DNA from: Okeania sp. SIO2F5
GTDB taxonomy: Bacteria; Cyanobacteriota; Cyanobacteriia; Cyanobacteriales; Microcoleaceae
Direction of reading: 5' to 3'
NCBI RefSeq assembly: GCF_010692685.1
Contig: NZ_JAAHGU010000008.1
Coordinates: 41,619 to 105,618, forward strand
Length of the DNA stretch: 64,000 nt
In this document: piece after piece, positions 8,511 through 44,085 of the stretch
Numbering within the stretch: the first letter of the stretch is position 1
Layout of the letters: the number at the start of each line of letters is the position of its first letter
The notes under the pieces: model-generated
The model's database searches: none
What the model was told of the DNA's origin: nothing
The model's input: only the letters and a program-made list of their open reading frames with translations
Program-made: the position numbers and the translations under genes

Positions 8511-9618
8511 AGACCTACCACCTAACACCTAATTCTGTGCAGTCTTAAATAAAATTGGTATAAGTTATAAGTTTTCAATTAACTATTCTATGACTATTAT
8601 TTGTATTTTTAAATATTCTATAATTATCTGGAATAAATATTTTTCATCTTTATAAAAAAGCATAATTTTTAATTAACATCTGCTATTTTTTATACCATAA
8701 TTAATCTTCTACTATAAGCTCGTAAATATATCATATTGAAGTTAGTTAAGCCAATAATAAGTAAATTCTTAATCCAGCACATACCTCTGGCAAAAATAAA
8801 AATTCAATCCTTTTTTCTTTCTAAATATTTATCTTTCCGGTCTTCCATCACCTATTCAGCAACTCTGGCAACAAGTTTAACTATTTTGTGTCTGAAGAGA
8901 CAGACTTCTTAAGCAAGACAATTTATTTAGCGATCGCTTTTATTCCCTATTATGTATATTAGTTAATAGTTTGAATACAAAATCATAACCGTACTTGGGT
9001 ACTAATAAGTACATCCTGGAGACAAAAAAATTTTGTGAACCATAAGCATAAGATCAGGGTTATAATTATGGTTAAAGATGTAGACTAAAATTATGCCAAT
9101 AACTTGCACTTGAGCCATCAATATTCATAACTCTGATGTTTGAAGCCAAACACTGAATAATCCGAAATTGAGTCAGGCAAAAATGAAGAAAATACTCAAG
9201 CACTAAAATATGTAACTTCTACCTCTACCTATTTACTATTTAAAGTATTTATTCTCATTCAATTCTCAGCAAATAGTATCTACCTATTCAATTTTATCTC
9301 TTACTTTAGGGCTGATTAGGCTAAAATAGAATTTGATGAAAATATATAAAGTTGTTCTTCAGGTGAGAGGCCATGATATTTGAATAACTCACAGACTTGT
9401 AACTTAAATTTTCCTATCATAAATGTTAGAAAGAGAACTCCCGTTATAATCGCGAGATTTAACTGTGAGAGTGTCAAAGAAATTCAATTATGATTATGTC
9501 CAAAGCAAAAAATTGGGTAACCAAAGACATTCGTATAATAATGCTTGCATAAGCAAACATTACCATGAGGTATATTCCTCTACCCCAGAAACACTCTAGC
9601 TTACTATAAAGTCACACT

Positions 9619-10404
9619 ATGACCACTTTCAATATGTACATGGCTGCCGCAACCAAAACTAAAAGCACTGATGTCTGCACTTATAGAGAGATTGCTAAAT
9701 TGAACACATCAGCAATTATGGCTTGTGGGTTGACAATGACCTACCAATCTGGAAAACAGTCATACCAGGTACTGAAGAATATTGACTTGACAGTAAACAA
9801 AGGTGATGTCCAGTTATTGATGGGACCATCTGGTTCTGGTAAAACTACTTTGCTGTCAATCTTAGCAGGATTATTAACACCCACATCTGGTAGAGTCTGT
9901 CTCCTGGGACAAGAAATCACTAAAATGTCCAGAAGCCAACTAGCCAAGTTTAGACTTAAGAATATTGGCTTTATCTTTCAGGGATTTAATTTGTTCCCTG
10001 CATTGACGGCAACAGAAAATATAGAAGTGGCTCTGAATATGAAGGGTATTAAAGGTAAGGCAGCAAAACATGAAGCTCAAATACTTTTAGAGCAAGTAGG
10101 ACTAGCACCTCAGGCCAAGTTACATCCAAGAGATTTGTCTGGTGGCCAAAAACAAAGAGTGGCTATTGCCCGCGCACTATGTGGCAGTCCTAGAGTTATT
10201 ATGGCTGATGAACCCACAGCAGCATTAGATTCTCACAGTGGTCATACAGTTATTGAGTTACTGCGTCGTCTTGCTAAAGAAGGTGGTTGTACAGTATTAA
10301 TGGTCACTCACGATCCTAGAATAGTAAGTTCTGCTGATAGAGTAGTTTATCTTGAAGATGGGGTTGTACAGGAAAATAAACAACTATCCGATCATATTCT
10401 GTAA
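9619..10404 (+). CDS. ABC transporter ATP-binding protein of the DevA/LolD/MacB-like family. The start is possibly the internal Met near 9717.
   Basis: Walker A is GPSGSGKTT, the ABC signature is LSGGQKQRVAIARAL, and Walker B is IMADEPT. No permease gene lies adjacent. Confidence 0.85.
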   Translation: MTTFNMYMAAATKTKSTDVCTYREIAKLNTSAIMACGLTMTYQSGKQSYQVLKNIDLTVNKGDVQLLMGPSGSGKTTLLSILAGLLTPTSGRVCLLGQEITKMSRSQLAKFRLKNIGFIFQGFNLFPALTATENIEVALNMKGIKGKAAKHEAQILLEQVGLAPQAKLHPRDLSGGQKQRVAIARALCGSPRVIMADEPTAALDSHSGHTVIELLRRLAKEGGCTVLMVTHDPRIVSSADRVVYLEDGVVQENKQLSDHIL

Positions 10405-10527
10405 TTTTAGTAATATATTCACATCTAGAATTATTGTAACTTTCCAGATATTAATCTAACCCTGGGAACTCATTTTTTTTGTTTACTTTTCTTTTTCTTT
10501 GTTTTTGTTGGCTACTTCTGTATTGTT

Positions 10528-11571
10528 TTATTTAATTGTAAAATTTGTTCCTCGATAACACCCTTGAAAAGAAGTTAAATTAGTATTAGTAATTTGCTCA
10601 AGCTTAGTTACTAATGAGGTAGTACTAGGATGGTGGTGAAATTTATTCCACTGATAGGCAAATTCACCAATATAGCTACCTGTTCCTTGATAACTAAACT
10701 CTTCTATAGGTATCCCAGAAATACCAGAAATTTCTTGGTCATGATATCCATTAATAATTACTTTCTCTAATTTAACTTCTTTACCCAAACTAACATTCCA
10801 ATGTACAGGTTCATAAGAAGAGAGAGCTAAAATGACAGGCTGATTTTTTCTTTCTATTTTGACATTAATTATGCCTGTGGGATGATATCCACCATAATGA
10901 TCTGAGCGTGCCTCATAAACACCTACCAAGTGTAACTCCTTCTCTCCATTAGAAGTATTAAAAAAAGATGAAAAATTATTACTACCTCCAACACCACAGG
11001 TAAAACCATCAACTACTGCTGTAGGCAATTCATTTTGATTAGCTTGCTGTTGAAATTTTGACCTCATTAATAACCAGCTACCAAAAGTAATACTAGCTAT
11101 TAAAACACTGGCAGTTATCACAATTAAAGATTTAATATTTTGGTCAAATAAGTTTATTCTAAGTCGTTTCTTTGGAGAATAATTAAAATTTTGACTAACC
11201 TCAGAAACTATATCTGCTTTTTCATCCAGACAAGCTAATAACTTTAAACTTTCTGGTTGTTCTAACATAGTAGAAACAATTTTTGCTGTTCCTACATATA
11301 GATTTCTATTTTTTCTATCTACAATTAACCAATATTGATCGGTTTCATTTAACTGATAATCTTGTACTTGAGAATTTACCAGAGGATGCTGAAGAAAAAT
11401 CTGCCAAGCAACACTAATACCAGCACCGATATTTTTACCGTCATTGTACATAACTTGGTCAATTTCTGGTTCCCAGTGAAAAGCTACCCAGGGATGGTTA
11501 GATTTATATCCTAATGACTTTTCTAACTGTGGGTTGGCAGTAAAATTTAAGAGTTTGACGAGATTAGACAT
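10528..11571 (-). CDS. Hypothetical single-pass membrane protein.
   Basis: 347-aa ORF with one predicted TM segment (LIVITASVLIASITFGSWLLM). No recognisable domain. Confidence 0.5.
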   Translation of the reverse strand: MSNLVKLLNFTANPQLEKSLGYKSNHPWVAFHWEPEIDQVMYNDGKNIGAGISVAWQIFLQHPLVNSQVQDYQLNETDQYWLIVDRKNRNLYVGTAKIVSTMLEQPESLKLLACLDEKADIVSEVSQNFNYSPKKRLRINLFDQNIKSLIVITASVLIASITFGSWLLMRSKFQQQANQNELPTAVVDGFTCGVGGSNNFSSFFNTSNGEKELHLVGVYEARSDHYGGYHPTGIINVKIERKNQPVILALSSYEPVHWNVSLGKEVKLEKVIINGYHDQEISGISGIPIEEFSYQGTGSYIGEFAYQWNKFHHHPSTTSLVTKLEQITNTNLTSFQGCYRGTNFTIK

Positions 11572-33070: not shown

Positions 33071-36000
33071 ATGTCAGAATATTACAATGCCTTCATCTCT
33101 TACGGACGTGCCGACAGTAAATCTTTTGCTACAAAACTCTATGAAAAACTCACAGAAAATGTTCTAAAAATCTGGTTTGACCAAAATGATATTCCTCTGG
33201 GAGTAGACTTTCAAAATCAAATTGATGATGGCATCATAAAAGCTGATAATTTTCTGTTTATTATTGCGCCTCATTCTGTTAATTCTCCCTACTGTCTCAA
33301 AGAAATAGAATTAGCTATTAAATACAATAAACGAATTATTCCCCTGCTTCACGTCGAACAAATTAATTATGAAATTTGGCAAGAACGAAATCCTCAAGGA
33401 ACTTTAGAAGAATGGGAGGTTTATCAGGAGAAAGGTAAACATTCCAGCTTTCCCAATATGCACTCAGAAATAGGTAGAATTAACTGGGTTTATTTTCGGG
33501 AAAATATTGATAATTTTGATAAAAGTTTAACTGACTTAATCGCATTATTTAATCGTCACCAAGATTATGTAAAACAACATACTAAGATTTTAGTTAAAGG
33601 TTTAGACTGGGAAAATAATCAAAAACAAACTCGTTACTTGTTAATTGGAAAAGAACGTCTACAAGCAGAACAATGGTTAAAGATTAAATTTACAGAAGAA
33701 CAACCCCCTTGTATTCCTACAGATTTACATTGTGAATTTATCTGTGAAAGTGATAAAAATGCTAATAATTTAATGACTCAAGTTTTCCTGGCTTTTGCTG
33801 AAGCAAATAAAAGTTTTATGGAGCAAATCAGGAAAAGTTTAATTAGAGAAGGAATTACTGTCTGGAGTTCTCATGCCGATATTAAAACTGGAAAAGATTT
33901 TCAAATAGAAATTAATCAAGGAATTGCTGGAGCGGATAATCTAATTTATTTATTGTCTCCTGAAGCCATAAAATCTGAATATTGCCAACAGGAATTAACT
34001 TATGCTTTGAGTCTGAATAAACGAATTATTCCTCTTTTAATTTCTCCTACAGATTTAACAGAAATTTCTCCAGAAATAAGTAATTTACAATTCATTGATT
34101 TTACTGCATCAGAGCCAGAAGGAATAGATAAACTCCTGAAAGAATTAAAGTCAGAAGCTGTTTATTATCAACGGCATAAAATTTTATTAGTCAAAGCTTT
34201 GAAATGGCTGTCACAAAATCGTAACCCTAGTATTTTATTACGGGGTTATAATCTCGAACAATCTCAAAGTTGGCTGGAATTAGCTGGAAATAGAACGGCT
34301 AATTTACCTACATATTTACAAACAGAATTTATTGCCGAAAGTGCTAAACAACCACCTAATTTAGTTTTAGATGTTTTTGTTTCTTATTCCAGAGCAGATT
34401 CAGATTTTGCTAGACAGTTAAATGAGGCATTACAAACTCAGGGAAAAACTACTTGGTTTGACCAGGAAAGTATTGCTACAGGCACAGATTTTCAACAGGA
34501 AATTAATCGCGGAATTGAACAGTCGGATAATTTCTTATTTATTATTTCTCCAGATTCAGTAAATTCTCCCTATTGTGGAAATGAAGTAGAGTATGCCAAA
34601 AGTTTAAATAAACGTTTTGTGACAGTATTATATCGAAAAGTTGATAGTAAGGAGTTGCATCCAGAATTAGCAAAAGTGCAATGGTTAGATTTTCATCGGT
34701 ATGGAGGAGAATTTTATACTAACTTTAGCGAGTTAGTACGTTTTTTGGATACTGATAGAGATTATGTCAGAAACCATACAAAGTTTTCACAACAAGCATT
34801 GGACTGGGAGGAAAAAGCTAGTGAAGATTTATTGCTACGAGGAAGTGAACTGGCGATCGCTAAAAACTGGTTACAGGAAGCTCTTAACACTAACAAACAA
34901 CCCCCACTCAACAAGTTGCAAAAGAAATTTATTGAAGCTAGTGACGACCTACATACTAGCATCCAACAAGCAAGAGCAAAACGCAGACAACTTGATATCA
35001 CAACTGCTTGGGGAATTACAGTAGGTTCCCTGTTGGCAGTTATGATTAGCACTGGGTTGTGGCAAAATTCTAGACATGAGCATAAAAAAGCTCAACTTAA
35101 TTTAGCACAGTCTCTTGCTCGCTCTTCCTCCTCTCTATTTGTCGGTAACAAAGAATTAGAAGCATCGATTGAAGTTATTAAAGCGGGGAAAAATTTGCAA
35201 AGATACAAGGTGAAAGACGCAGAAGTGATCGACGCATTGCAACAGTCTGTTTATAGTGGCAGTGAAAGCAACAGATTACAAGGACACAAAAATTCTATTC
35301 GCTCTCTGAGTTTTAGTCCAGATGGCAAAATATTGGCATCAGGCAGCGATGATAAACAGATTAAGCTTTGGAATATGGAAACGGGAGCAGAAATACGAAC
35401 TTTCTCTGGACACGATCGCTCTGTTATTAGTGTTTGCTTTAGTGCGGATGGGAAAATTTTAGCATCGGCAGGAAAAGATAAGAAGATAAAACTTTGGGAT
35501 GTAGAAACAGGTAAGGAAATTGATACTTTCTCCGGACATACTGACTGGATAAATAGCATGAATTTTAGTCCAGATGGTAAGATTTTAGTATCAGGGAGTA
35601 AGGATAATACGATTAAACTCTGGAATGTAGAGACAGGCAAAGAAATTTACACCCTTTTCGGGCATCAGGATAGTGTAATTAGTATCAGTTTTAGTCCTGA
35701 CGGTAAAACTTTAGTATCGGGAAGTAAAGATAAAACAATTAAGTTTTGGGATGTAGAGACAGGTAGAGAAATTTACACCCTCTTCGGACATAATGGTTTG
35801 GTAAGTAGTGTCCGTTTTAGTCCCGATGGCAAGATATTAGCAAGCGGTAGTTATGATAAGACTGTTAAACTTTGGGATTTAGAAACAGGTGAGGAAATTC
35901 GGACTTTGACAGGACATTTTAGTTCAATTATGAGTGTGAGTTTTAGTCCGAATGGTAAACATTTAGCGACTGGTAGCAAAGACCGGATAGTTAAGCTATG

Positions 36001-37174
36001 GGATATAGAAACAGGAAATGAAATTCGCTCTTTTTATGGTCACGATGCTTGGGCATTTCGGGTAAGTTTTAGTCCAGATGGCAAGATATTAGCATCGGGT
36101 AGTGGTGACAAAACCATCAGACTCTGGAATTTAGAAACGAGAAGGGAACTTAGTACACTTAAAGGACATGATGATTCGATTCAACATTTAAGTTTTCCTC
36201 TAGCTTCATCCCCTCAAATATATAAATCTGAGAAAGAGATGATATTTGTTTCTGGTGGCGCTGATAAAACTGTCAAGATATGGGATTTGAAGACTAAAAC
36301 TCAAGATACTTTGAAGGGACATGATGACTCGGTAATGAAAATTAGCGTTAGTCCGGATGGCAAGACCATTGCTTCTGCGGGTGAAGATAGCACTATTATT
36401 TTATGGGATGTAGAAACAAAACAAGAGATTCATCGACTTGAAGGTCATACCGATGCAGTCAAGGCGATTAGTTTTAGTCCGGATGGCAACATCTTAGCTT
36501 CTGGCAGTAAAGATACTACTATCAAACTTTGGAATTGGATAACAAAAGAAGAAATAGGCAATTTAAAAGGTCACGAAAGCACGGTAATGACAATGAGTTT
36601 TAGTCCGGATGGCAAGACCTTAGCTTCTGGTAGTAAGGACAATATAATTAACCTCTGGAATATAGAAACAATGGAAAAAATGGAACCTCTCATAAACGAC
36701 AATCAGAGTTCTAATTTTAGTGTCAGTTTCAGTCCTGATGGTAAGACCTTAGCTGCTGGAGGCGATCGCAATCTTGTTACTTTATGGGATGTGGAAAAAA
36801 GAGAAAAAGTTTTCACTTTCAAAGGTCATAGTAGTTCTATTAACAGCGTTAGTTTTAGTCCGGATGGTAAGATTTTAGCTTCTGGAAGTTCTGACAAAAC
36901 AATTAAACTGTGGAACCCGAAACAGGGAAATTCTATTTTGACATTTCACGGACATGAAGACTCAGTTAATAGTGTCAGTTTTAGTCCGGATGGTAAAGTC
37001 TTAATATCTGGTAGTGATGATAAAACAATTAGACTTTGGGATGTAGAAAAACTAGATTTAGAGGTAGATTTAAACGACCTAATGCTCCGTAGTTGTAATT
37101 GGGTGCGTGGTTATTTACAGCATAATCCTTATGTGGAAGAGGAGAATAGAAACTTGTGCGATAATATTGGTTAA
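33071..37174 (+). CDS. Three tandem TIR domains, a single TM, 14 WD40 repeats and a Cys-containing C-terminal tail.
   Basis: TIR1 is aa 5-100 (FISYGRAD...SPYCLKEIELA). TIR2 is aa 235-325 (...SEYCQQELTYAL). TIR3 is aa 432-520 (DVFVSYSRADS...SPYCGNEVEYAK). TM is ITTAWGITVGSLLAVMISTGLW. There are 14 KLWD/NxETG repeats. The tail is SCNWVRGYLQHNPYV...LCDNIG. Confidence 0.85.
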   Translation: MSEYYNAFISYGRADSKSFATKLYEKLTENVLKIWFDQNDIPLGVDFQNQIDDGIIKADNFLFIIAPHSVNSPYCLKEIELAIKYNKRIIPLLHVEQINYEIWQERNPQGTLEEWEVYQEKGKHSSFPNMHSEIGRINWVYFRENIDNFDKSLTDLIALFNRHQDYVKQHTKILVKGLDWENNQKQTRYLLIGKERLQAEQWLKIKFTEEQPPCIPTDLHCEFICESDKNANNLMTQVFLAFAEANKSFMEQIRKSLIREGITVWSSHADIKTGKDFQIEINQGIAGADNLIYLLSPEAIKSEYCQQELTYALSLNKRIIPLLISPTDLTEISPEISNLQFIDFTASEPEGIDKLLKELKSEAVYYQRHKILLVKALKWLSQNRNPSILLRGYNLEQSQSWLELAGNRTANLPTYLQTEFIAESAKQPPNLVLDVFVSYSRADSDFARQLNEALQTQGKTTWFDQESIATGTDFQQEINRGIEQSDNFLFIISPDSVNSPYCGNEVEYAKSLNKRFVTVLYRKVDSKELHPELAKVQWLDFHRYGGEFYTNFSELVRFLDTDRDYVRNHTKFSQQALDWEEKASEDLLLRGSELAIAKNWLQEALNTNKQPPLNKLQKKFIEASDDLHTSIQQARAKRRQLDITTAWGITVGSLLAVMISTGLWQNSRHEHKKAQLNLAQSLARSSSSLFVGNKELEASIEVIKAGKNLQRYKVKDAEVIDALQQSVYSGSESNRLQGHKNSIRSLSFSPDGKILASGSDDKQIKLWNMETGAEIRTFSGHDRSVISVCFSADGKILASAGKDKKIKLWDVETGKEIDTFSGHTDWINSMNFSPDGKILVSGSKDNTIKLWNVETGKEIYTLFGHQDSVISISFSPDGKTLVSGSKDKTIKFWDVETGREIYTLFGHNGLVSSVRFSPDGKILASGSYDKTVKLWDLETGEEIRTLTGHFSSIMSVSFSPNGKHLATGSKDRIVKLWDIETGNEIRSFYGHDAWAFRVSFSPDGKILASGSGDKTIRLWNLETRRELSTLKGHDDSIQHLSFPLASSPQIYKSEKEMIFVSGGADKTVKIWDLKTKTQDTLKGHDDSVMKISVSPDGKTIASAGEDSTIILWDVETKQEIHRLEGHTDAVKAISFSPDGNILASGSKDTTIKLWNWITKEEIGNLKGHESTVMTMSFSPDGKTLASGSKDNIINLWNIETMEKMEPLINDNQSSNFSVSFSPDGKTLAAGGDRNLVTLWDVEKREKVFTFKGHSSSINSVSFSPDGKILASGSSDKTIKLWNPKQGNSILTFHGHEDSVNSVSFSPDGKVLISGSDDKTIRLWDVEKLDLEVDLNDLMLRSCNWVRGYLQHNPYVEEENRNLCDNIG

Positions 37175-37508
37175 ATCAAAGTGGGTATTCAATAATTAAC
37201 AATTATTAATGGCTTTGTTGCATGAATGTTGCGATCGCAGATGACTACCTTTAACTAAATTTTCTGGGGTTGCACATTATGGAATGATATTGCCAAAAAT
37301 TGGTTTAGATTTTGACTAAAAATAACCATTAATTAATCATTCTAGCAATTGATTAATCCACAATCCAATTCAATCAAAAATATCAAATCATTCGTCACTG
37401 TGCAACGCCAATTTTCTTATCGACTAGGGCAAATGTGGCTGCATCCAATTATAGATTTTTCTATTCCTCCAGAAGCAGTTTTTTTTTCGTTTACCAGCTT
37501 GGCAACTT

Positions 37509-38003
37509 TTGGAAAGTAGTAAAGACCAATTATTAGCCACAACTAAACTAGAAAAACTTTCATCAATAGTGATTATTGCTGCTGCATATAGAGATGCACA
37601 ATTAACTGTTGATAAACAAAATTTTCCTTTACCTGCTGCTGTTAGTTACTGGCGTTCTCAAAAACTGCGTAATGTATTTATAGGAGGAGAAATTCATGCT
37701 TATATGGTTCATCATTTCCTGAACCAAAGATTAGTTATACCTATTCCTGATTTATGGCTAATTGGGGTAGCTATTGTGTTAGGTAAAGGAATAGTATTAA
37801 TCTTAGAAAAAAAATCTCCATTACGCCAACAAAAAGGGATTTTTTTATTCCTATTTTTACTAAATATAATTTATGGTTTAGCTAGTCTACAAATTTATAT
37901 TACTGCTGCAATTTTATTGCCTTTGTTCTTGCCTAGTTTAACATTTTGGGTTTGTATATTTTTCTATTTAATAAAACCAAAATCGACAATTAAATTAGTT
38001 TGA
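37509..38003 (+). CDS. Small multi-pass membrane protein with no recognisable domain. It has a TTG start, so the true start is uncertain.
   Basis: 164-aa ORF whose C-terminal two-thirds are 3-4 hydrophobic helices. It sits between the TIR-WD40 gene and the cyclase gene. Confidence 0.4.
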   Translation: MESSKDQLLATTKLEKLSSIVIIAAAYRDAQLTVDKQNFPLPAAVSYWRSQKLRNVFIGGEIHAYMVHHFLNQRLVIPIPDLWLIGVAIVLGKGIVLILEKKSPLRQQKGIFLFLFLLNIIYGLASLQIYITAAILLPLFLPSLTFWVCIFFYLIKPKSTIKLV

Positions 38004-38007
38004 CAAT

Positions 38008-40311
38008 TTAAATGGAAGAGGAGTGTTTTCTATCAACCCCCATCCCCTCACCCCAAGAAGGTCGCACATGATAAGTAGGAAATGTACCATAACCCTTAGC
38101 CAAAGGAGTTTTTCCCACATAATCGCAAGTAAATTCCTTTACCCCCTCCGAAGCTACCATTGCAGCAAACTCCTGACTCGAATAAACTTTCCCTGGTGGA
38201 GTAATAGGTTCAATTCTGGCAGCATAATTTACATGAGTACCACTGTAGGTTGTATCCCCAGTGATGGGATTAGTATATTTATAAACCACCCCTGTATGTA
38301 ACGCTACCCGTAAATTCAAACTTGCAGGCAACCCTACTTTTTCCCAATCTGTACTCTGAACAAGATCACATACTTCTAAGGCAAATAAACCTGCATCCCT
38401 TACATTAGAGAAGACATAATATAAAGCATCTCCCCAAGTATTTTTCATCACTGGTTTATAAGAAGATTGAACCTCAAACTTTGCCACCGCACCGAAAAAA
38501 TGTTCTACAAATATACTAATCTGGTTTTCCTTCAACTTAGAATAACTCTTGACATCTGCAAATAACAACGCCATAATTAACCGATTTTCGTCCTCTGGCG
38601 CAGAGGTTGGTTGTAGGGGAGTTGTCGGTGTAGATAGTGTATTCAATATCTCTACTTTCTGTGTCATCACAGATTGTAAAATCTGCTGAATATCAATGAT
38701 TTCCACATTATCATTCCATTGTCGCCAAAATTCTACAGCCCTTGCTGTACCACCTATCCCACCAATTTGTTGATTCCAAACAGCCATTGGTATAAGTTCT
38801 GTATCCAACTGTTCTGCTCGCATTTTTGCCATCCCGTAGAGAATATTATTAGTGTATTCATAGGAAATATTGCTGTTTTCAAGATTATAATGAGTTGGAA
38901 TAATCACTTCTGTTGCTTTTTCCAAAACTTCATCAAATCGTTCTAGCCAAGTGCTATTAGGAATAATATCAATAGAATTTTTGATAAATTGTTCTCGCTC
39001 ATGGGGTAAGACAATATGAGCCTCTCCTTGAAGTTCATATAATGCTTCCAAAAATAAAATATCACTACCACAAGCTGCAGCAGCATAACCCAATCGAGCA
39101 TCTAACTGAATCAGGCGATCGCGAATCGCTTGATAAACCTGTAACTCTATTTCTGGAGGAAACCTCGGTGGTGTGCGACCTGGTTCATCAATCATGTGAC
39201 CGCTAAATACTACCACTCTAGGAATTTGAAAACAGTGCTTAATCAATTCCATATCCCCCTGGCGATATTGTACAATCAAAGTAGCATTACGACGAGTCGA
39301 TCTTAAATCCCCCAATTTCCCCCTAGCTAATTCCACCGCTTGATTATACCAATTTTCTGCCTCTAAATTTTCCCCTAAAATCAAAGCTACTTCTCCCAAA
39401 GTTGCCAGTAACCAGTAGTCATTCTCACTCCTATGGGAAACTGCTGGGAGTTTAGCCAGACATTTTTCCTGTACTTCAGCAGCGATCGCCTTTGCTATTT
39501 CAGCATCTCCCATCAACATTGTCATTGTCGCGGCATTTATCCCCGGATAATAATCCCCACTCATTTGATAAGCTTGTTGATATCGTTGAGCTGCCAATGC
39601 TATTTGTTGGGTACTTTCCTCTGGAGAGCTTGCTTGCTGCCACAAATCTTTATGAGTTCTGGCTAACAAACAAATAGTTTCCTCGTCATTTTTGCCAGAG
39701 TTTACTAACTCTAATAATAAATTATTAGCCCGTTGAGTTGCTCCACTTCGAGCTAAACTCAAAACTAAAAGTTGTTGTAAACGGATATCATTCGGCCATT
39801 CTTTTAACCCTTCCGATAAAATATCATAAGCCATTAATGGCTCCCCAAGTTTCAGGATATATTCACCCAAAATCCGAAAAATTTCTGGGTAACGCAAATG
39901 GAGATTAATAGTTTCTCGACGAATTGTTTGTAAACTTTTTAAATTTAGTTGGGATGATTTTTTTAAACTTTCTAAAATTAACGATAAATTATTATCATCA
40001 ACTGTAGCAGTTTTTTCAGTAGTAGTTTCGCTTCCTTCTATTCGATAACCTATGGCTAAAAGAGTTTTAATTACTCCCATAGAAACAACGCGGTCATATT
40101 CTTTTTCTGACTCTGGCAATTCTTCATAAGGCACTAAACCAGGATGTAATTTTTGGGCATCATCTCGATTTTTTCCATATTTCCAACCTTCAGAAATTCG
40201 CTGTTTTGCCCAAATGTCATGGGTATTTTTAGCCAGTAATTCAGTAATTTTTAAATGTTCTGTTGTCAGATTTACCTTGGAAGTATCTATTGGATCTGGT
40301 TTATAGTTCAA
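38008..40311 (-). CDS. RyR domain, TPR repeats, a Rossmann-like (SLOG/DprA-like?) domain and a class III nucleotidyl cyclase.
   Basis: N-terminus matches the RyR-domain consensus (ELLAKNTHDIWAKQRISEGWKYG..RDD..KLHP.LVPYEELPESEKEYDR). The C-terminal cyclase motifs are FADVKSYS, GDALYYVF and LRVALHTGVVY...GTHVNYAARIE. Confidence 0.8.
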   Translation of the reverse strand: MNYKPDPIDTSKVNLTTEHLKITELLAKNTHDIWAKQRISEGWKYGKNRDDAQKLHPGLVPYEELPESEKEYDRVVSMGVIKTLLAIGYRIEGSETTTEKTATVDDNNLSLILESLKKSSQLNLKSLQTIRRETINLHLRYPEIFRILGEYILKLGEPLMAYDILSEGLKEWPNDIRLQQLLVLSLARSGATQRANNLLLELVNSGKNDEETICLLARTHKDLWQQASSPEESTQQIALAAQRYQQAYQMSGDYYPGINAATMTMLMGDAEIAKAIAAEVQEKCLAKLPAVSHRSENDYWLLATLGEVALILGENLEAENWYNQAVELARGKLGDLRSTRRNATLIVQYRQGDMELIKHCFQIPRVVVFSGHMIDEPGRTPPRFPPEIELQVYQAIRDRLIQLDARLGYAAAACGSDILFLEALYELQGEAHIVLPHEREQFIKNSIDIIPNSTWLERFDEVLEKATEVIIPTHYNLENSNISYEYTNNILYGMAKMRAEQLDTELIPMAVWNQQIGGIGGTARAVEFWRQWNDNVEIIDIQQILQSVMTQKVEILNTLSTPTTPLQPTSAPEDENRLIMALLFADVKSYSKLKENQISIFVEHFFGAVAKFEVQSSYKPVMKNTWGDALYYVFSNVRDAGLFALEVCDLVQSTDWEKVGLPASLNLRVALHTGVVYKYTNPITGDTTYSGTHVNYAARIEPITPPGKVYSSQEFAAMVASEGVKEFTCDYVGKTPLAKGYGTFPTYHVRPSWGEGMGVDRKHSSSI

Positions 40312-40350
40312 AATCTACTCCTCGATCAAATAATAGTTAACGTAAGGATT

Positions 40351-40490
40351 CAGGGTTATATCATGTCCGGATAATTAGTGATCAAAAAACTTTCTCCTTC
40401 TTCATTCTTTCTACCCTCCTGTCTCCTGTCTCCTGTCTCCTGACTCCTTCGTCGTTTATTTATAACTGTTCAACCGGACATGATATTACT
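40351..40490. mobile_element. MITE family B, complete ~140-bp copy (TTATATCATGTCCGG ... CAACCGGACATGATAT) with CCTGTCT x3 STRR cargo.
   Basis: Perfect 13-bp TIRs. The core GATCAAAAAACTTTCTCC is shared with 17947 and 31064. Confidence 0.65.
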
Positions 40491-40861
40491 TAACATTCAT
40501 TGATGATAGTAACTATAAGTTATCAGCTATCAGTTTTTGTATTGACATACAAAATGTTTTTGGACTACTAATCCCAAATGATTTGTGAGAAAAAACTGTA
40601 GAGGTTTGATATTCACACCTAAGATTAAAGATTGGGTTTGGAAACAAAACCGCCACTATCAATCAAATATTACAACCTAATTTAGGATTGCTATAGGCGA
40701 TCGCTAAAGTATCTAGTTTGCTCGCTTCCAGTTTTTCACCTTCTAAAATATTCCTAAAAACAGTTGATTTTATACTTTATTTACCTACTATAAAATTTCA
40801 ACTACACTGTTTCGCTAGTGAGGATATTCTTCATCATCTTGAGAAAGTCTAGGATTACAGC

Positions 40862-41200
40862 CTAACCAAGCAAAAGTCCTTTATACCACCCAACGTCTGG
40901 GCAAAACTTTAAATCCTTTTTCAGTTCTGAATAGTTAATTTCCATCCACTTGCTCATTGCCACTGGCTTCTCTAGTTTTATTCTATAACCTTGATCTGCC
41001 CAAACAATTTTCAGATTCGGGGCCTCATTTGATGACTTGAAGAAATATAAACTTAGCTGCTGTACAATACCTATACAATTCCGGCAAAACTTGGTAAAAC
41101 CTGAGTAATGCCAGTCAAGATGTTTGCTTCTTGCTTCAACCTGGGAGGCCGCCCTCTTCCAGTTCACAAGCGTAAATTCGGGTACAGCCTACCCTATTTT
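40862..41200 (-). ncRNA. Putative TnpB-associated omega (right-end) RNA region.
   Basis: Inferred only by analogy. In IS605-family elements the guide RNA overlaps the tnpB 3' end and the right end. Boundaries were not determined. Confidence 0.2.
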
Positions 41201-42371
41201 TTTGATTAATTTCCCCATACTGAGATAACACCAGTGCTGCATTCAAGTCCCGGTCTATTATCATTCCAAAGTTAGGGCAATCAAAGGTGCGGTCTTTTAG
41301 CTTTAATTCTTGATGAATATGACCACAACTATGACAAGTTTTAGAAGATGGAAACCACTGGTCAGCTAGCACTACTGTCCCACCGGAGCTTACGATTTTG
41401 GTTGTCAATCGTTGCCGAAACTGATAAAATCCTTGCCTAGCTATTGATGCTGCTAATTTACCATTTTGCATCATTCCTTTCACATTTAAACTCTCTAAGC
41501 AGACGTGCTTGACTTGAGTCACTAATTTTGTAGTAGTTTTCTCTATGAAATCTCTACGCACGTTAGCAATACGACAATGGTACTTCGCGAGTTTTTTGTA
41601 ATATTTAATCGCATTTTTTGAAGGTGGTTTACCTTTACCTCCTACTTGTTTATTGCGATTGCGCCATTGAAACTTAGCCAGGTTTAATTGCTCTAGTTTA
41701 ATAGAGTCTGGGAGACTTACAACTTCATTTTCTCTCTTTTTTTGGTTTGCTATACTTGCAAATTGTTTGACTCCAACATCTATACCAAAAGTTTCGTATT
41801 GTCGCTTATCTAATAGGGGATGAACTGGCAACTTCTCAGCTTCAATACTAAAACTAACAAACCATTTTTCCCCTGTTCTACTAATAGTAAAAGTCTGACT
41901 TGCTGTGGTGTAAGGTATTGATTCCCATAATCGAAAAGTCCCTAGTGTTGGTATTTTAATTTTTTTACCAGGGTTAATTGTAACTTTTCCATTACCGTCA
42001 TAAACAGTAAAAGATTGTCTGTCTTTTTTCCTTTTCAACTTAGGATACTTACTGGTTCCTTCTTTATACCGTTTAAATGCTTCACCTAGATGTTGAAAAG
42101 CACTTTGATAAATGCGGGACGAATAATTGTTGATCCAGGCATATTCTGGCTGCTTTTTTACATAGTTAGTAAAGACTTTTTTAGCTTCTAAAATACGTAA
42201 TGCGTAACTCAAGCTCACTTCCTGACCACGTTTGTTAACTTTGGTCATGGCAGAAGTTCCATTAACCATACTGAGGCCATAGTTGTAAACAAAACGAGCA
42301 TAACCAGCACATTTCGCCATAAATGAGCGCTCCTGGTTACTGAGTTTTAATTCAAGTTTTTTGGCGTACAA
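41136..42371 (-). CDS. tnpB: TnpB (OrfB) RNA-guided endonuclease-like transposase accessory protein.
   Basis: N-terminal HTH (KCAGYARFVYNYGL), RuvC-like blocks, the zinc ribbon CHSCGHIHQELKLKDRTFDCPNFG, and C-terminal DRDLNAAL. Confidence 0.9.
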   Translation of the reverse strand: MYAKKLELKLSNQERSFMAKCAGYARFVYNYGLSMVNGTSAMTKVNKRGQEVSLSYALRILEAKKVFTNYVKKQPEYAWINNYSSRIYQSAFQHLGEAFKRYKEGTSKYPKLKRKKDRQSFTVYDGNGKVTINPGKKIKIPTLGTFRLWESIPYTTASQTFTISRTGEKWFVSFSIEAEKLPVHPLLDKRQYETFGIDVGVKQFASIANQKKRENEVVSLPDSIKLEQLNLAKFQWRNRNKQVGGKGKPPSKNAIKYYKKLAKYHCRIANVRRDFIEKTTTKLVTQVKHVCLESLNVKGMMQNGKLAASIARQGFYQFRQRLTTKIVSSGGTVVLADQWFPSSKTCHSCGHIHQELKLKDRTFDCPNFGMIIDRDLNAALVLSQYGEINQKNRVGCTRIYACELEEGGLPG

Positions 42372-42677
42372 TCAAATCACCTCCAACCACATTTTCAAAT
42401 ATTTTTTGTGGCTAAGTCAAAAAAATCCCCTTTTTTTTCAGTTCTTGCCGGAAATTGCCATAGATATTGATACTAGCAATCAGCTCCTTCTCAGTAATAA
42501 CCCTTGACTATACTACCAAATATTTGTTGTTTTCTTCCTTTTACCTAATTAAACCTACAAGGGAAAAGATAATTAGCGATCGCCCACCCATAACCAAAAT
42601 TTAACCTAACCATATCTACATATAACACCACAAAAATAGGGCGCGAACATTTATAAATGCTCAAACTCACTCAGGGA

Positions 42678-42720
42678 TTACTTCTAACTTCTAACTTCTA
42701 ACTTCTGACTTCTGACTTCA
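42678..42720. repeat. STRR array TTCTAAC x3 / TTCTGAC x2.
   Basis: Read directly. Confidence 0.8.
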
Positions 42721-42798
42721 TAAAATCTACCCCCTTGCCAACGATCCCTAACCATTGGACACTTAGAATGACAATGTTGTTGGCAGTGAGGTTCAACC

Positions 42799-44085
42799 GT
42801 GAAAAACGTACTAAGTATAATTCTAGGCGGTGGCGCAGGTACCCGCCTCTATCCATTAACAAAACTGCGGGCCAAACCAGCAGTACCCCTAGCCGGGAAA
42901 TATCGGTTGATAGATATTCCTATCAGTAACTGCATCAACTCAGACATCGAGAAAATCTATGTTCTGACCCAATTCAACTCAGCTTCTCTAAACCGTCATA
43001 TTACTCGCGCCTACAACTTCCCAGGCTTCAGTGAAGGTTTTGTAGAAGTTCTCGCAGCTCAACAAACTAAAGATAATCCAGAGTGGTTCCAAGGAACCGC
43101 CGATGCTGTCCGCAAATATATCTGGTTATTTAAAGAGTGGGATATTGACTATTACCTAATTCTCTCCGGAGACCATCTCTACCGCATGGACTATCGGGAG
43201 TTTGTCCAACGTCATATTGAAACAAAGGCAGATATTACCCTTTCTGTCTTGCCCATTGATGAAGCACGAGCATCTGATTTTGGTTTAATGAAAATTGATG
43301 ACTCTGGTCGGATTATTGAATTTAGCGAAAAACCTAAAGGGGACGATCTAAAAATTATGGCAGTGGATACCACTGTTTTAGGAGTTAGTCCAGAAGTCGC
43401 TAAAGAACAACCATACATTGCTTCTATGGGGATTTATGTCTTTAATAAAGATGTCATGGTCAAACTATTGGAAGAATCCGAAGCTCCAGATTTTGGTAAG
43501 CAAATTCTACCTAATTCGGCTAAAGATTATAATGTTCAAGCTTACCCATTTGAAGGTTATTGGGAAGATATCGGGACTATTAGGTCATTCTATGAAGCTA
43601 ATTTGGCTTTGACCCAACAACCTCAACCACCTTTTAGCTTTTATGATGAAAAAGCTCCTATCTATACTCGTTCTCGTTACTTACCACCAAGTAAACTTTT
43701 GGATTGTCAAATTACAGAATCAATTGTCGGAGAAGGTTGTATTCTCAAACAATGCCGCATTGACCATTGTGTCTTAGGAGTGCGATCGCGAGTTGAAGCT
43801 GGTTGTGTAATTGAGGACTCTCTGCTGATGGGGGCAGATTACTATGAACCCTTTGCAGAGCGTAAATCTGGGCTACAAAAGGGTATTGTTCCATTGGGAA
43901 TCGGTGCTGAAACTACTGTTCGTGGGGCAATCATTGATAAGAATGCCCGCATTGGTCGCAATGTCCAGATTATTAATAAAGATCGTATAGAGGAAGCTCA
44001 ACGTGAGGATGAAGGATTTATCATTCGTAGCGGTATTGTTGTTGTCTTGAAGAATGCCGTTATCCCAGATGGCACAGTGATCTAG
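42799..44085 (+). CDS. glgC: Glucose-1-phosphate adenylyltransferase (GTG start).
   Basis: N-terminus [41 protein letters not shown]. Full-length ADP-glucose pyrophosphorylase. Confidence 0.9.

Follow-up and report, generated by a model that had tools for sequence, protein, structure and literature searches.

Among the known systems closest to the one considered here, type I Thoeris combines a TIR protein, ThsB, with ThsA, a SIR2–SLOG protein: the 3'-cyclic ADP-ribose (3'cADPR) made by the TIR protein is bound by the SLOG domain of ThsA, and the SIR2 domain joined to this SLOG is thereby switched on (as summarised in bioRxiv 10.64898/2025.12.03.692087). The effector of type VIII Thoeris, ThsI, responds to canonical cyclic ADP-ribose (cADPR), and it has been suggested that the signal is perceived by its TPR, which is the TPR predicted by Aravind (bioRxiv 10.64898/2025.12.03.692087). 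The Thoeris effectors described in the available parts of the literature are NADases, pore-/membrane-disrupting proteins, proteases and predicted nucleotide hydrolases, and no cyclase effector was found in the available parts of the text and supplement of the 2025 Thoeris survey (bioRxiv 10.64898/2025.12.03.692087). Here, we describe a gene carried by a stretch of 64,000 nucleotides (hereafter, the window) from the cyanobacterium Okeania sp. SIO2F5 (RefSeq assembly GCF_010692685.1, contig NZ_JAAHGU010000008.1, positions 41,619 to 105,618). This gene encodes a protein that combines RyR, TPR-S, SLOG-like and class III cyclase domains, and it lies beside a gene encoding three TIR domains. We consider, with a probability of about 0.55, that such pairs form a Thoeris-like system in which an ADP-ribose (ADPR)-type signal made by the TIR protein switches on an adenylate cyclase.

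Two things are classed here as new: a probable Thoeris-like TIR signalling system whose effector, a cyclase, has not been described, and a YpsA-type SLOG subfamily that has not been catalogued. If the system belongs to Thoeris, it would represent an undescribed type, since PADLOC returns no significant match for the effector. No description was found in the full-text literature on TPR-S/DUF4071, on RyR together with cyclases or on Thoeris together with adenylate cyclases; a prior computational mention in Burroughs 2015 (NAR) or in Burroughs and Aravind 2020 (J Bacteriol) is possible. The cyclase phylogeny published in 2026 by Aravind and colleagues mentions neither SLOG nor RyR.

A sequence-only reading of this DNA had proposed an N-terminal RyR domain, a TPR array and a class III cyclase for the protein, and Pfam bears this out on an intact open reading frame (ORF; Table 1). 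The TTG start gives an N-terminus that agrees with the consensus derived from over 100 homologues of full length. Within the TPR array, Pfam recognizes TPR-S at residues 165–263 (E 9e-25) and MAP3K_TRAF_bd at residues 175–353 (E 1e-12), and the C-terminal domain matches Guanylate_cyc at residues 581–749 (E 3e-6, 27.3 bits versus a cut-off of 21.9). We take the TPR of ThsI to be the Pfam family TPR-S (PF20308). The organization differs, however, from that of ThsI, which carries a CMP-hydrolase/DRHyd-type domain N-terminal to its TPR, whereas in the window protein TPR-S is followed by the fused SLOG and cyclase domains. The animal kinases ASK1-3 (MAP3K5/6/15) offer another comparison, as MAP3K_TRAF_bd and TPR-S both match residues 165–353 of the window protein. 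In ASK proteins, a TPR-S scaffold precedes a small globular domain and a C-terminal signalling enzyme, the same order as here, but a PH-like domain and a kinase stand where the window protein has SLOG and cyclase domains.

More than 1300 homologues of the whole protein were found, and all of the best 120, from Cyanobacteria, Chloroflexota, Acidobacteriota (Pyrinomonadaceae) and Bipolaricaulia, display the full architecture. The closest of them, which include Okeania sp., are 91–92% identical, and an exact-sequence look-up returned no record identical to the window protein. The databases know these homologues simply as 'TRAFs-binding/DUF4071 domain-containing protein' or as 'class 3 adenylate cyclase', and the whole protein of 767 residues has no significant match in NCBIfam or PADLOC. 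The central domain alone matches 2864 cluster representatives (exhaustive phmmer, E ≤ 1e-3). With this and the homologues of the whole protein, the architecture is not that of a chance ORF.

The link with TIR proteins extends far beyond the window. Scanning one genome per species yielded 80 loci from at least ten phyla; ORFs called in their 10 kb flanks were screened for TIR by means of an iterated profile whose seed was the TIR neighbour in the window. A TIR gene is found within 10 kb in 42 of the 80 loci and immediately flanks the cyclase gene in 29. TIR ORFs account for 29 of 153 at the ±1 positions versus 2 of 454 located at least five genes away (odds ratio 53, Fisher p 1.5e-16). This linkage occurs in Cyanobacteria, Acidobacteriota, Verrucomicrobiota, Deltaproteobacteria, Lentisphaerae, Spirochaetota, Burkholderiales and Gemmatimonadales, and the TIR gene lies upstream, downstream, divergent or convergent relative to the cyclase gene depending on the lineage. 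This varied order and orientation therefore points to functional coupling rather than inherited synteny. All ten TIR partners that were scanned with Pfam proved to carry TIR; six have C-terminal repeats (WD40 in Nostocales, TPR or Sel1 elsewhere), one combines TIR with DUF4062 and three showed no domain other than TIR. The catalytic Glu is kept in all 50 TIR domains of the loci.

The C-terminal domain has the fold and the catalytic residues of a class III cyclase. When searched with phmmer, it aligns with 3mr7, Pseudomonas aeruginosa CyaB, trypanosomal GRESAG4 and Spirulina CyaC. Residue conservation was counted in 117 homologues, the sample used below for the other domains as well. The pair of metal-binding Asp residues, whose loss would have told against the sequence-only reading, is present and invariant, and its two members line up with the FADxxGYS and GD motifs of 3mr7. 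As to the specificity-determining residues, whose check the same reading had proposed, the Lys at position 623 is of the adenylate cyclase type and is kept in a large majority of homologues; the second specificity position, 688, varies. Together, K623 and T688 predict that the window protein uses ATP as substrate and yields cyclic AMP (cAMP). A pyrimidine cyclase of the Pycsar type was considered and rejected: PADLOC gives no PycC match, and the domain is nearer in structure to housekeeping-type purine cyclases (CyaB, Cya2, Rv1264) than to Pycsar cyclases.

A class III-fold cyclase gene adjoining a TIR gene is also the known layout of Pycsar/Pucsar (bioRxiv 10.64898/2026.08.12.744502). By analogy, the cyclase protein could be both the sensor, its TPR array being capable of such a role, and the signal generator, its cyclic nucleotide monophosphate (cNMP) activating the TIR protein as an NAD+-depleting effector; the retention of the catalytic Glu of the TIR domains would fit. 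However, the cyclase of Pycsar/Pucsar is small and its TIR effector carries a cNMP-binding domain, whereas none of the ten TIR partners scanned here has a cNMP_binding domain, six of them bearing WD40, TPR or Sel1 repeats instead. Furthermore, no cNMP-binding family is found among the frequent neighbours, the cyclase domain is closer to housekeeping-type purine cyclases than to those of Pycsar, and it is the cyclase protein rather than the TIR protein that carries the modules of the type that receives ADPR signals (SLOG, TPR-S and RyR). The reverse direction thus appears rather improbable, and a signal running from the TIR protein to the cyclase is preferred.

In Acidobacteriota and other phyla, the cyclase gene is found with a TIR protein of about 500 residues together with an nSTAND1 nucleoside triphosphatase (NTPase) bearing TPR or WD40 repeats. 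This NTPase is a recurrent third gene and is the same as that fused to the core of the cyclase protein in one homologue (P0173). The three-gene layout, made of the nSTAND1 NTPase (900–1500 residues, TPR/WD40 repeats), the TIR protein of about 500 residues and the RyR–TPR-S–SLOG–cyclase gene, was seen in loci L020, L025, L026, L028, L033 and L035, mostly from Pyrinomonadaceae, and also in L021, L030, L059, L064 and L081. The one example of the TIR protein of about 500 residues that was scanned, from L030, is made of TIR and DUF4062. A sigma-70-type factor and an S8 peptidase come next in most three-gene loci of the Pyrinomonadaceae type. The S8 peptidase, the sigma factor and the CobW, IspD and GT9 neighbours were rejected as partners, their presence reflecting lineage-specific synteny. 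A GAF–PP2C neighbour, found in 10 loci by clustering, was retained in only 1 locus by a stricter BLAST comparison.

The central domain (residues ~361–555) had been described in the sequence-only reading as a Rossmann-like β/α domain reminiscent of SLOG/DprA. The motifs quoted in its support are located as stated (VVFSGH at 367, AACGSD at 412), and the β/α pattern is borne out by the modelled fold; the assignment to SLOG is retained on the basis of the fold and of the GxD/E and GGT loops, but the closest clade is YpsA and not DprA. Sequence comparison gave no indication of this. Residues ~361–555 match nothing in Pfam, NCBIfam or PADLOC, a profile of 40 sequences found nothing among PDB sequences, and 40 members scanned singly against Pfam matched no SLOG family at E ≤ 10, DUF1273 included. 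By sequence, the domain thus belongs to none of the catalogued SLOG families (DUF1273, LOG, DprA, LSDAT, TPALS, LD_cluster). By contrast, a model of residues 350–575, built from an alignment of 76 homologues, displays an alternating β/α Rossmannoid with SLOG topology (predicted local distance difference test score 91, predicted template modelling score 0.86), and its nearest structure is that of Bacillus subtilis YpsA (PDB 2nx2), with 17% identity. On structural comparison, the CHASE- or GAF-type fold that had been named as an alternative was rejected. As judged from the model, the central domain is a member of the SLOG superfamily, from the YpsA clade, that is recognisable through its structure.

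Three conserved loops, of the kind expected in SLOG domains, would line the predicted nucleotide pocket of this modelled domain. The first, F369-x-G371-H372-x-x-D375, follows strand 1; the second, G415-x-D417, stands at the start of helix 2, both named residues being invariant; the third, G520-G521-T522, follows strand 5 and is at least 91% conserved, with T522 invariant. R379, R383, E389, E422, H432 and R458 are also invariant, and even among the 40 members that diverge most, conservation of the pocket-loop residues is ≥90%. We liken the C-terminal Gly-rich GGT loop to that of LOG. As to the GxD/E signature, mutagenesis in YpsA showed its importance (PMC6459960). YpsA (DUF1273), which has been linked to cell division and to oxidative stress, stands alone, whereas the SLOG of the window protein is one domain of a cyclase protein. 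Its relatives appear to make up a large SLOG subfamily, which we call uncatalogued since neither Pfam nor the profile search of PDB sequences matches it. The size of this subfamily was apparent only from exhaustive phmmer and profile searches, a word-indexed search with the central domain alone having given only 6 proteins. Stand-alone homologues of about 185 residues, 35–38% identical over ~92% of the domain, were observed in Paraburkholderia azotifigens (L084/L085, 6001..6567) and in L087 (6001..6549); their neighbours are genes for oxidoreductases, transporters and regulators, no TIR gene being close by, and UniRef labels one of them 'DUF1273 family protein' (YpsA family).

The SLOG domain could also be an enzyme that processes or generates a nucleotide. 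TPR-S and/or RyR would then be the sensor, and the protein would be a double nucleotide-modifying effector whose cyclase possibly drains ATP. The many invariant polar residues (H372, D375, R379, R383, E389, D417, E422, H432, R458 and T522) speak for this, hydrolases such as LOG are known among SLOG members, stand-alone homologues are found in metabolic neighbourhoods, the type VIII Thoeris effector joins the same TPR to a hydrolase-type domain, and no downstream cNMP receptor is encoded nearby. However, the Glu of the LOG motif PGGxGTxxE, which is catalytic, has no conserved counterpart here, position 527 being E, K, Q or A; no enzymatic activity is known for YpsA, the closest structure; and the SLOG of ThsA is a pure sensor. 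An enzymatic SLOG therefore seems unlikely, and a sensory SLOG that contributes to the perception of a TIR-made signal is favoured.

The RyR domain retrieves, with phmmer, Repeat12 of RyR1-3 and a RyR-like protein from Bacteroides thetaiotaomicron. Phage proteins with this domain (PF02026) have been shown to act on cyclic ADPR signals: RyDEP cleaves 2'/3'cADPR, and others bind 2'/3'cADPR at nanomolar affinity (PMC13232231, May 2026). RyDEP uses a H75/D117 dyad, with W78 stacking and H100 on the phosphates (PMC13232231). The RyR domain of the window protein belongs to the same Pfam family, and its H31, W34, H56 and D73 are spaced exactly as these four ligand and catalytic residues (H75, W78, H100 and D117). 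They are conserved in 117, 114, 113 and 90 of the homologues, respectively. On the basis of their spacing rather than of an alignment to RyDEP, these residues probably correspond to the ligand and catalytic residues of RyDEP. Unlike RyDEP, which is a viral counter-defence homodimer, the window protein carries a single repeat as the N-terminal module of a host signalling enzyme. With the SLOG of ThsA, the TPR of ThsI and the phage RyR proteins, all three modules upstream of the cyclase belong to families tied to ADPR-derived signals.

The RyR–TPR–SLOG–cyclase unit proposed from the sequence exists as such, but RyR is not a fixed part of it. Classification of the 150 best representatives of the central domain gave 83 TPR–SLOG–cyclase proteins versus 30 RyR–TPR–SLOG–cyclase proteins, the remainder being mostly fragments; RyR is absent in 39 and present in 36 of the 80 genome loci, and the TPR-S/MAP3K_TRAF_bd array is present in nearly all family members. 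These proportions, together with the variety of the domains added to the core, indicate that the conserved core, found in many phyla, is TPR-S–SLOG–cyclase and that RyR is an optional, mostly N-terminal accessory. Indeed, some members carry an N-terminal GAF (P0233), an N-terminally fused nSTAND1 NTPase (P0173), or a second cyclase and an NB-ARC-type NTPase at the N-terminus (P0219), one has a receiver domain in place of the cyclase (P0143), and another has its RyR at the C-terminus.

In the window, the TIR gene and the cyclase gene converge, with 834 bp between them (Table 1). The TIR domains of the partner match ThsB-type models of PADLOC, and all three carry a CxxE motif in their sequence. 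The TIR–cyclase pairing is also present in Okeania sp. SIO3B5 (L005), whose TIR protein is likewise a TIR×3 protein and retains a CHASE2-like C-terminus. The TIR gene of the window matches this orthologue only over residues 1–664, after which it encodes WD40. The spacer that separates the two genes is largely occupied by a remnant in which residues 870–895 and 896–1067 of the SIO3B5 TIR protein match in two different frames, with 81–88% identity. A swap of sensor module, from CHASE2 to WD40, left the old 3' end behind in the spacer. An ORF of 164 codons (37509..38003), considered as a possible third gene, was rejected as it is part of this remnant. In SIO3B5, the cyclase orthologue (8807..11176) is split into an upstream ORF of 381 codons, presumably the RyR–TPR part, and a SLOG–cyclase ORF of 384 codons; it would be either a frameshifted pseudogene or the product of an assembly error.

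The adjacency observed in the window could in principle be coincidental, since filamentous cyanobacteria are rich in TIR–WD40 genes. The convergence of the two genes, the 834 bp that separate them, the rearrangement of the TIR gene and the lack of a TIR gene at most cyanobacterial loci would all agree with chance. However, the pairing is repeated in SIO3B5, a TIR–WD40 gene lies directly downstream of the cyclase gene, on the same strand and after gaps of only 83–90 bp, in two Nostocales (Tolypothrix PCC 7910 and Nostoc sp. 106C, loci L002 and L018), and the enrichment in TIR genes is family-wide (p about 1e-16). Coincidence is therefore very improbable.

The other features of the locus are given in Table 1. 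Scans of positions 37100..42800 for promoters, terminators and Rfam families gave nothing above chance, and the spacer between the TnpB and cyclase genes matches no Rfam family. A second large WD40 protein is encoded further upstream in the window; the best 25 of its 52 Pfam families match from about residue 670 on, and its N-terminal part is possibly a STAND-type NTPase or an effector domain.

Table 1. Features of the window and key residues of the cyclase protein (positions are those of the window; conservation is given for 117 homologues)
Feature	Position	Strand	Remarks
Cyclase gene, 767 residues, RyR–TPR-S–SLOG–class III cyclase	38008..40311	−	intact ORF, TTG start at 40311
RyR (R12-type) domain, residues 3-92	40036..40305	−	Pfam, E 3e-33
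TPR-S / MAP3K_TRAF_bd (ASK-type) TPR array, residues ~142-353	39253..39888	−	Pfam
Predicted SLOG-fold domain, YpsA clade, residues ~361-555	38647..39231	−	outside all Pfam models
Class III nucleotidyl cyclase catalytic domain, residues ~576-752	38056..38586	−	D586, K623, D628, T688, N695, R699
Metal-binding Asp	D586		invariant, 117/117
Substrate-specifying Lys, adenylate cyclase type	K623		Lys in 109/117
Metal-binding Asp	D628		invariant, 117/117
Second specificity position	T688		variable, N/S/T/D/G
Transition-state Asn	N695		Ser in 82/117
Transition-state Arg	R699		invariant
TIR partner gene, 1367 residues, three tandem TIR, transmembrane (TM) helix and WD40 array	33071..37174	+	Pfam TIR_2 ×3, WD40
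Remnant of the ancestral 3' end of the TIR gene (CHASE2-like/TM), non-functional	37409..37991	+	tblastn of the L005 TIR protein
TnpB / IS605 OrfB-type gene (Cas12f1-like TNB, OrfB_IS605, HTH_OrfB)	41136..42371	−	825 bp upstream of the cyclase gene
Short ORF overlapping the TnpB gene	40862..41167	−	
Second large WD40 protein, 1299 residues	24176..28075	+	

Taken together, the cyclase protein would both receive the signal and deliver the output in a Thoeris-type TIR system, made of two genes here and of three elsewhere. The sequence-only reading had raised the idea that the cyclase is gated by a nucleotide-derived signal; this gains strong support from the context, through the conserved TIR neighbour and the ties of RyR and TPR-S to cADPR-type signals. 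The analysis shows what the domains are, that the catalytic residues of the cyclase and of the TIR domains are intact, and that the linkage with TIR genes, with or without nSTAND1, is conserved; which way the signal runs, what the ligand is, which module binds it and what is produced are inferred. A sensor module of its own (WD40 in the window, CHASE2 in the nearest relative, TPR or Sel1 elsewhere, or else a separate nSTAND1 NTPase) would trigger the TIR protein, which would then turn NAD+ into an ADP-ribose-derived messenger. This messenger would be bound by the TPR-S and SLOG core, and the optional RyR may provide a second binding site or act as a glycosidase that resets the signal. Binding would rearrange or oligomerise the protein, so that two cyclase domains form the active sites in a head-to-tail dimer and convert ATP into cAMP, as predicted from K623 and T688. 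The cAMP could be read by a global receptor; alternatively, the cyclase could act by consuming ATP. The full two-tier relay, in which a TIR-made ADPR-derived signal is read by the stack of RyR, TPR-S and YpsA-type SLOG and converted to cAMP, has in our view somewhat less than an even chance of being correct.

Several observations weigh against the Thoeris-like reading. About half of the loci, and most of the cyanobacterial ones, lack a TIR gene within 10 kb. In the window, the convergent genes are not co-transcribed, and the neighbours are housekeeping genes (GlgC, α-amylase and a thiamine pyrophosphate enzyme) and an insertion sequence element (TnpB), which do not make a typical defence island. 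PADLOC has no model for the cyclase protein. No cNMP-binding effector or receptor recurs among the 149 other close neighbours, and the locus does not encode the receptor for the cAMP. Nor can the substrate and the product be taken as certain, because the transition-state Asn is replaced by Ser in most homologues and position 688 varies. The metabolic neighbourhoods of the stand-alone SLOG homologues fit an enzymatic rather than a sensory domain. Finally, no measurement of ligand binding, cyclase activity or phage defence was found in the literature for any member of the family.

Part of these observations would also suit an ordinary physiological cAMP sensor that responds to the endogenous nucleotide or metabolic state (NAD+, ADPR or ADP/ATP) and feeds the global cAMP network of the cell. 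The linkage with TIR would then stand for just one input among several or, in this genome, for no input at all. Housekeeping neighbours are found in many Verrucomicrobiota loci as well as in the window, TIR is missing from half of the loci, and some relatives have an N-terminal GAF or a receiver domain replacing the cyclase. The TIR protein of the closest relative bears an extracytoplasmic CHASE2-like sensor, and the title of one article (PMC13642953) calls RY12, a domain of RyR1, an ADP sensor. However, such a sensor accounts poorly for the 53-fold enrichment in TIR genes at the flanking position across phyla and for the linkage and fusion with nSTAND1 NTPases, which are typical of conflict systems. 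Moreover, LSDAT-type SLOG and calcineurin-like proteins, although rare, occur among the 149 neighbours. According to the available part of a preprint that summarises Burroughs and Aravind 2020, the partners of the TPR core are YpsA, LSDAT, patatin and calcineurin; LSDAT and calcineurin-like proteins are thus common to the type VIII Thoeris/TPR-core systems and to the loci examined here. A physiological role of this kind has a low probability, and the Thoeris-like system remains the preferred reading.

If this reading is correct, a Thoeris effector would be a second-messenger synthase and not a killer enzyme. The TIR signal would be translated into cAMP, which would allow amplification or a transcriptional rather than suicidal response, and NAD+-derived immune signalling would be joined to the cAMP network of the cell. 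The family would also allow the RyR domain and the ASK-type TPR scaffold to be studied, in bacteria, as candidate receptors of cADPR-type signals. The protein brings together three modules whose ligand roles are only now emerging, the tie of RyR to 2'/3'cADPR dating from 2026 and that of a TPR-S-type scaffold to cADPR from 2025, and no ligand being known for the YpsA-type SLOG; the window protein is therefore a compact test bed for RyR, TPR-S and SLOG, modules that have animal counterparts in RyR channels, ASK kinases and TRPM channels. As for annotation, the analysis defines a SLOG subfamily beyond Pfam, with more than 2800 cluster representatives, and gives a functional hypothesis for the proteins named 'TRAFs-binding/DUF4071 domain-containing protein'.

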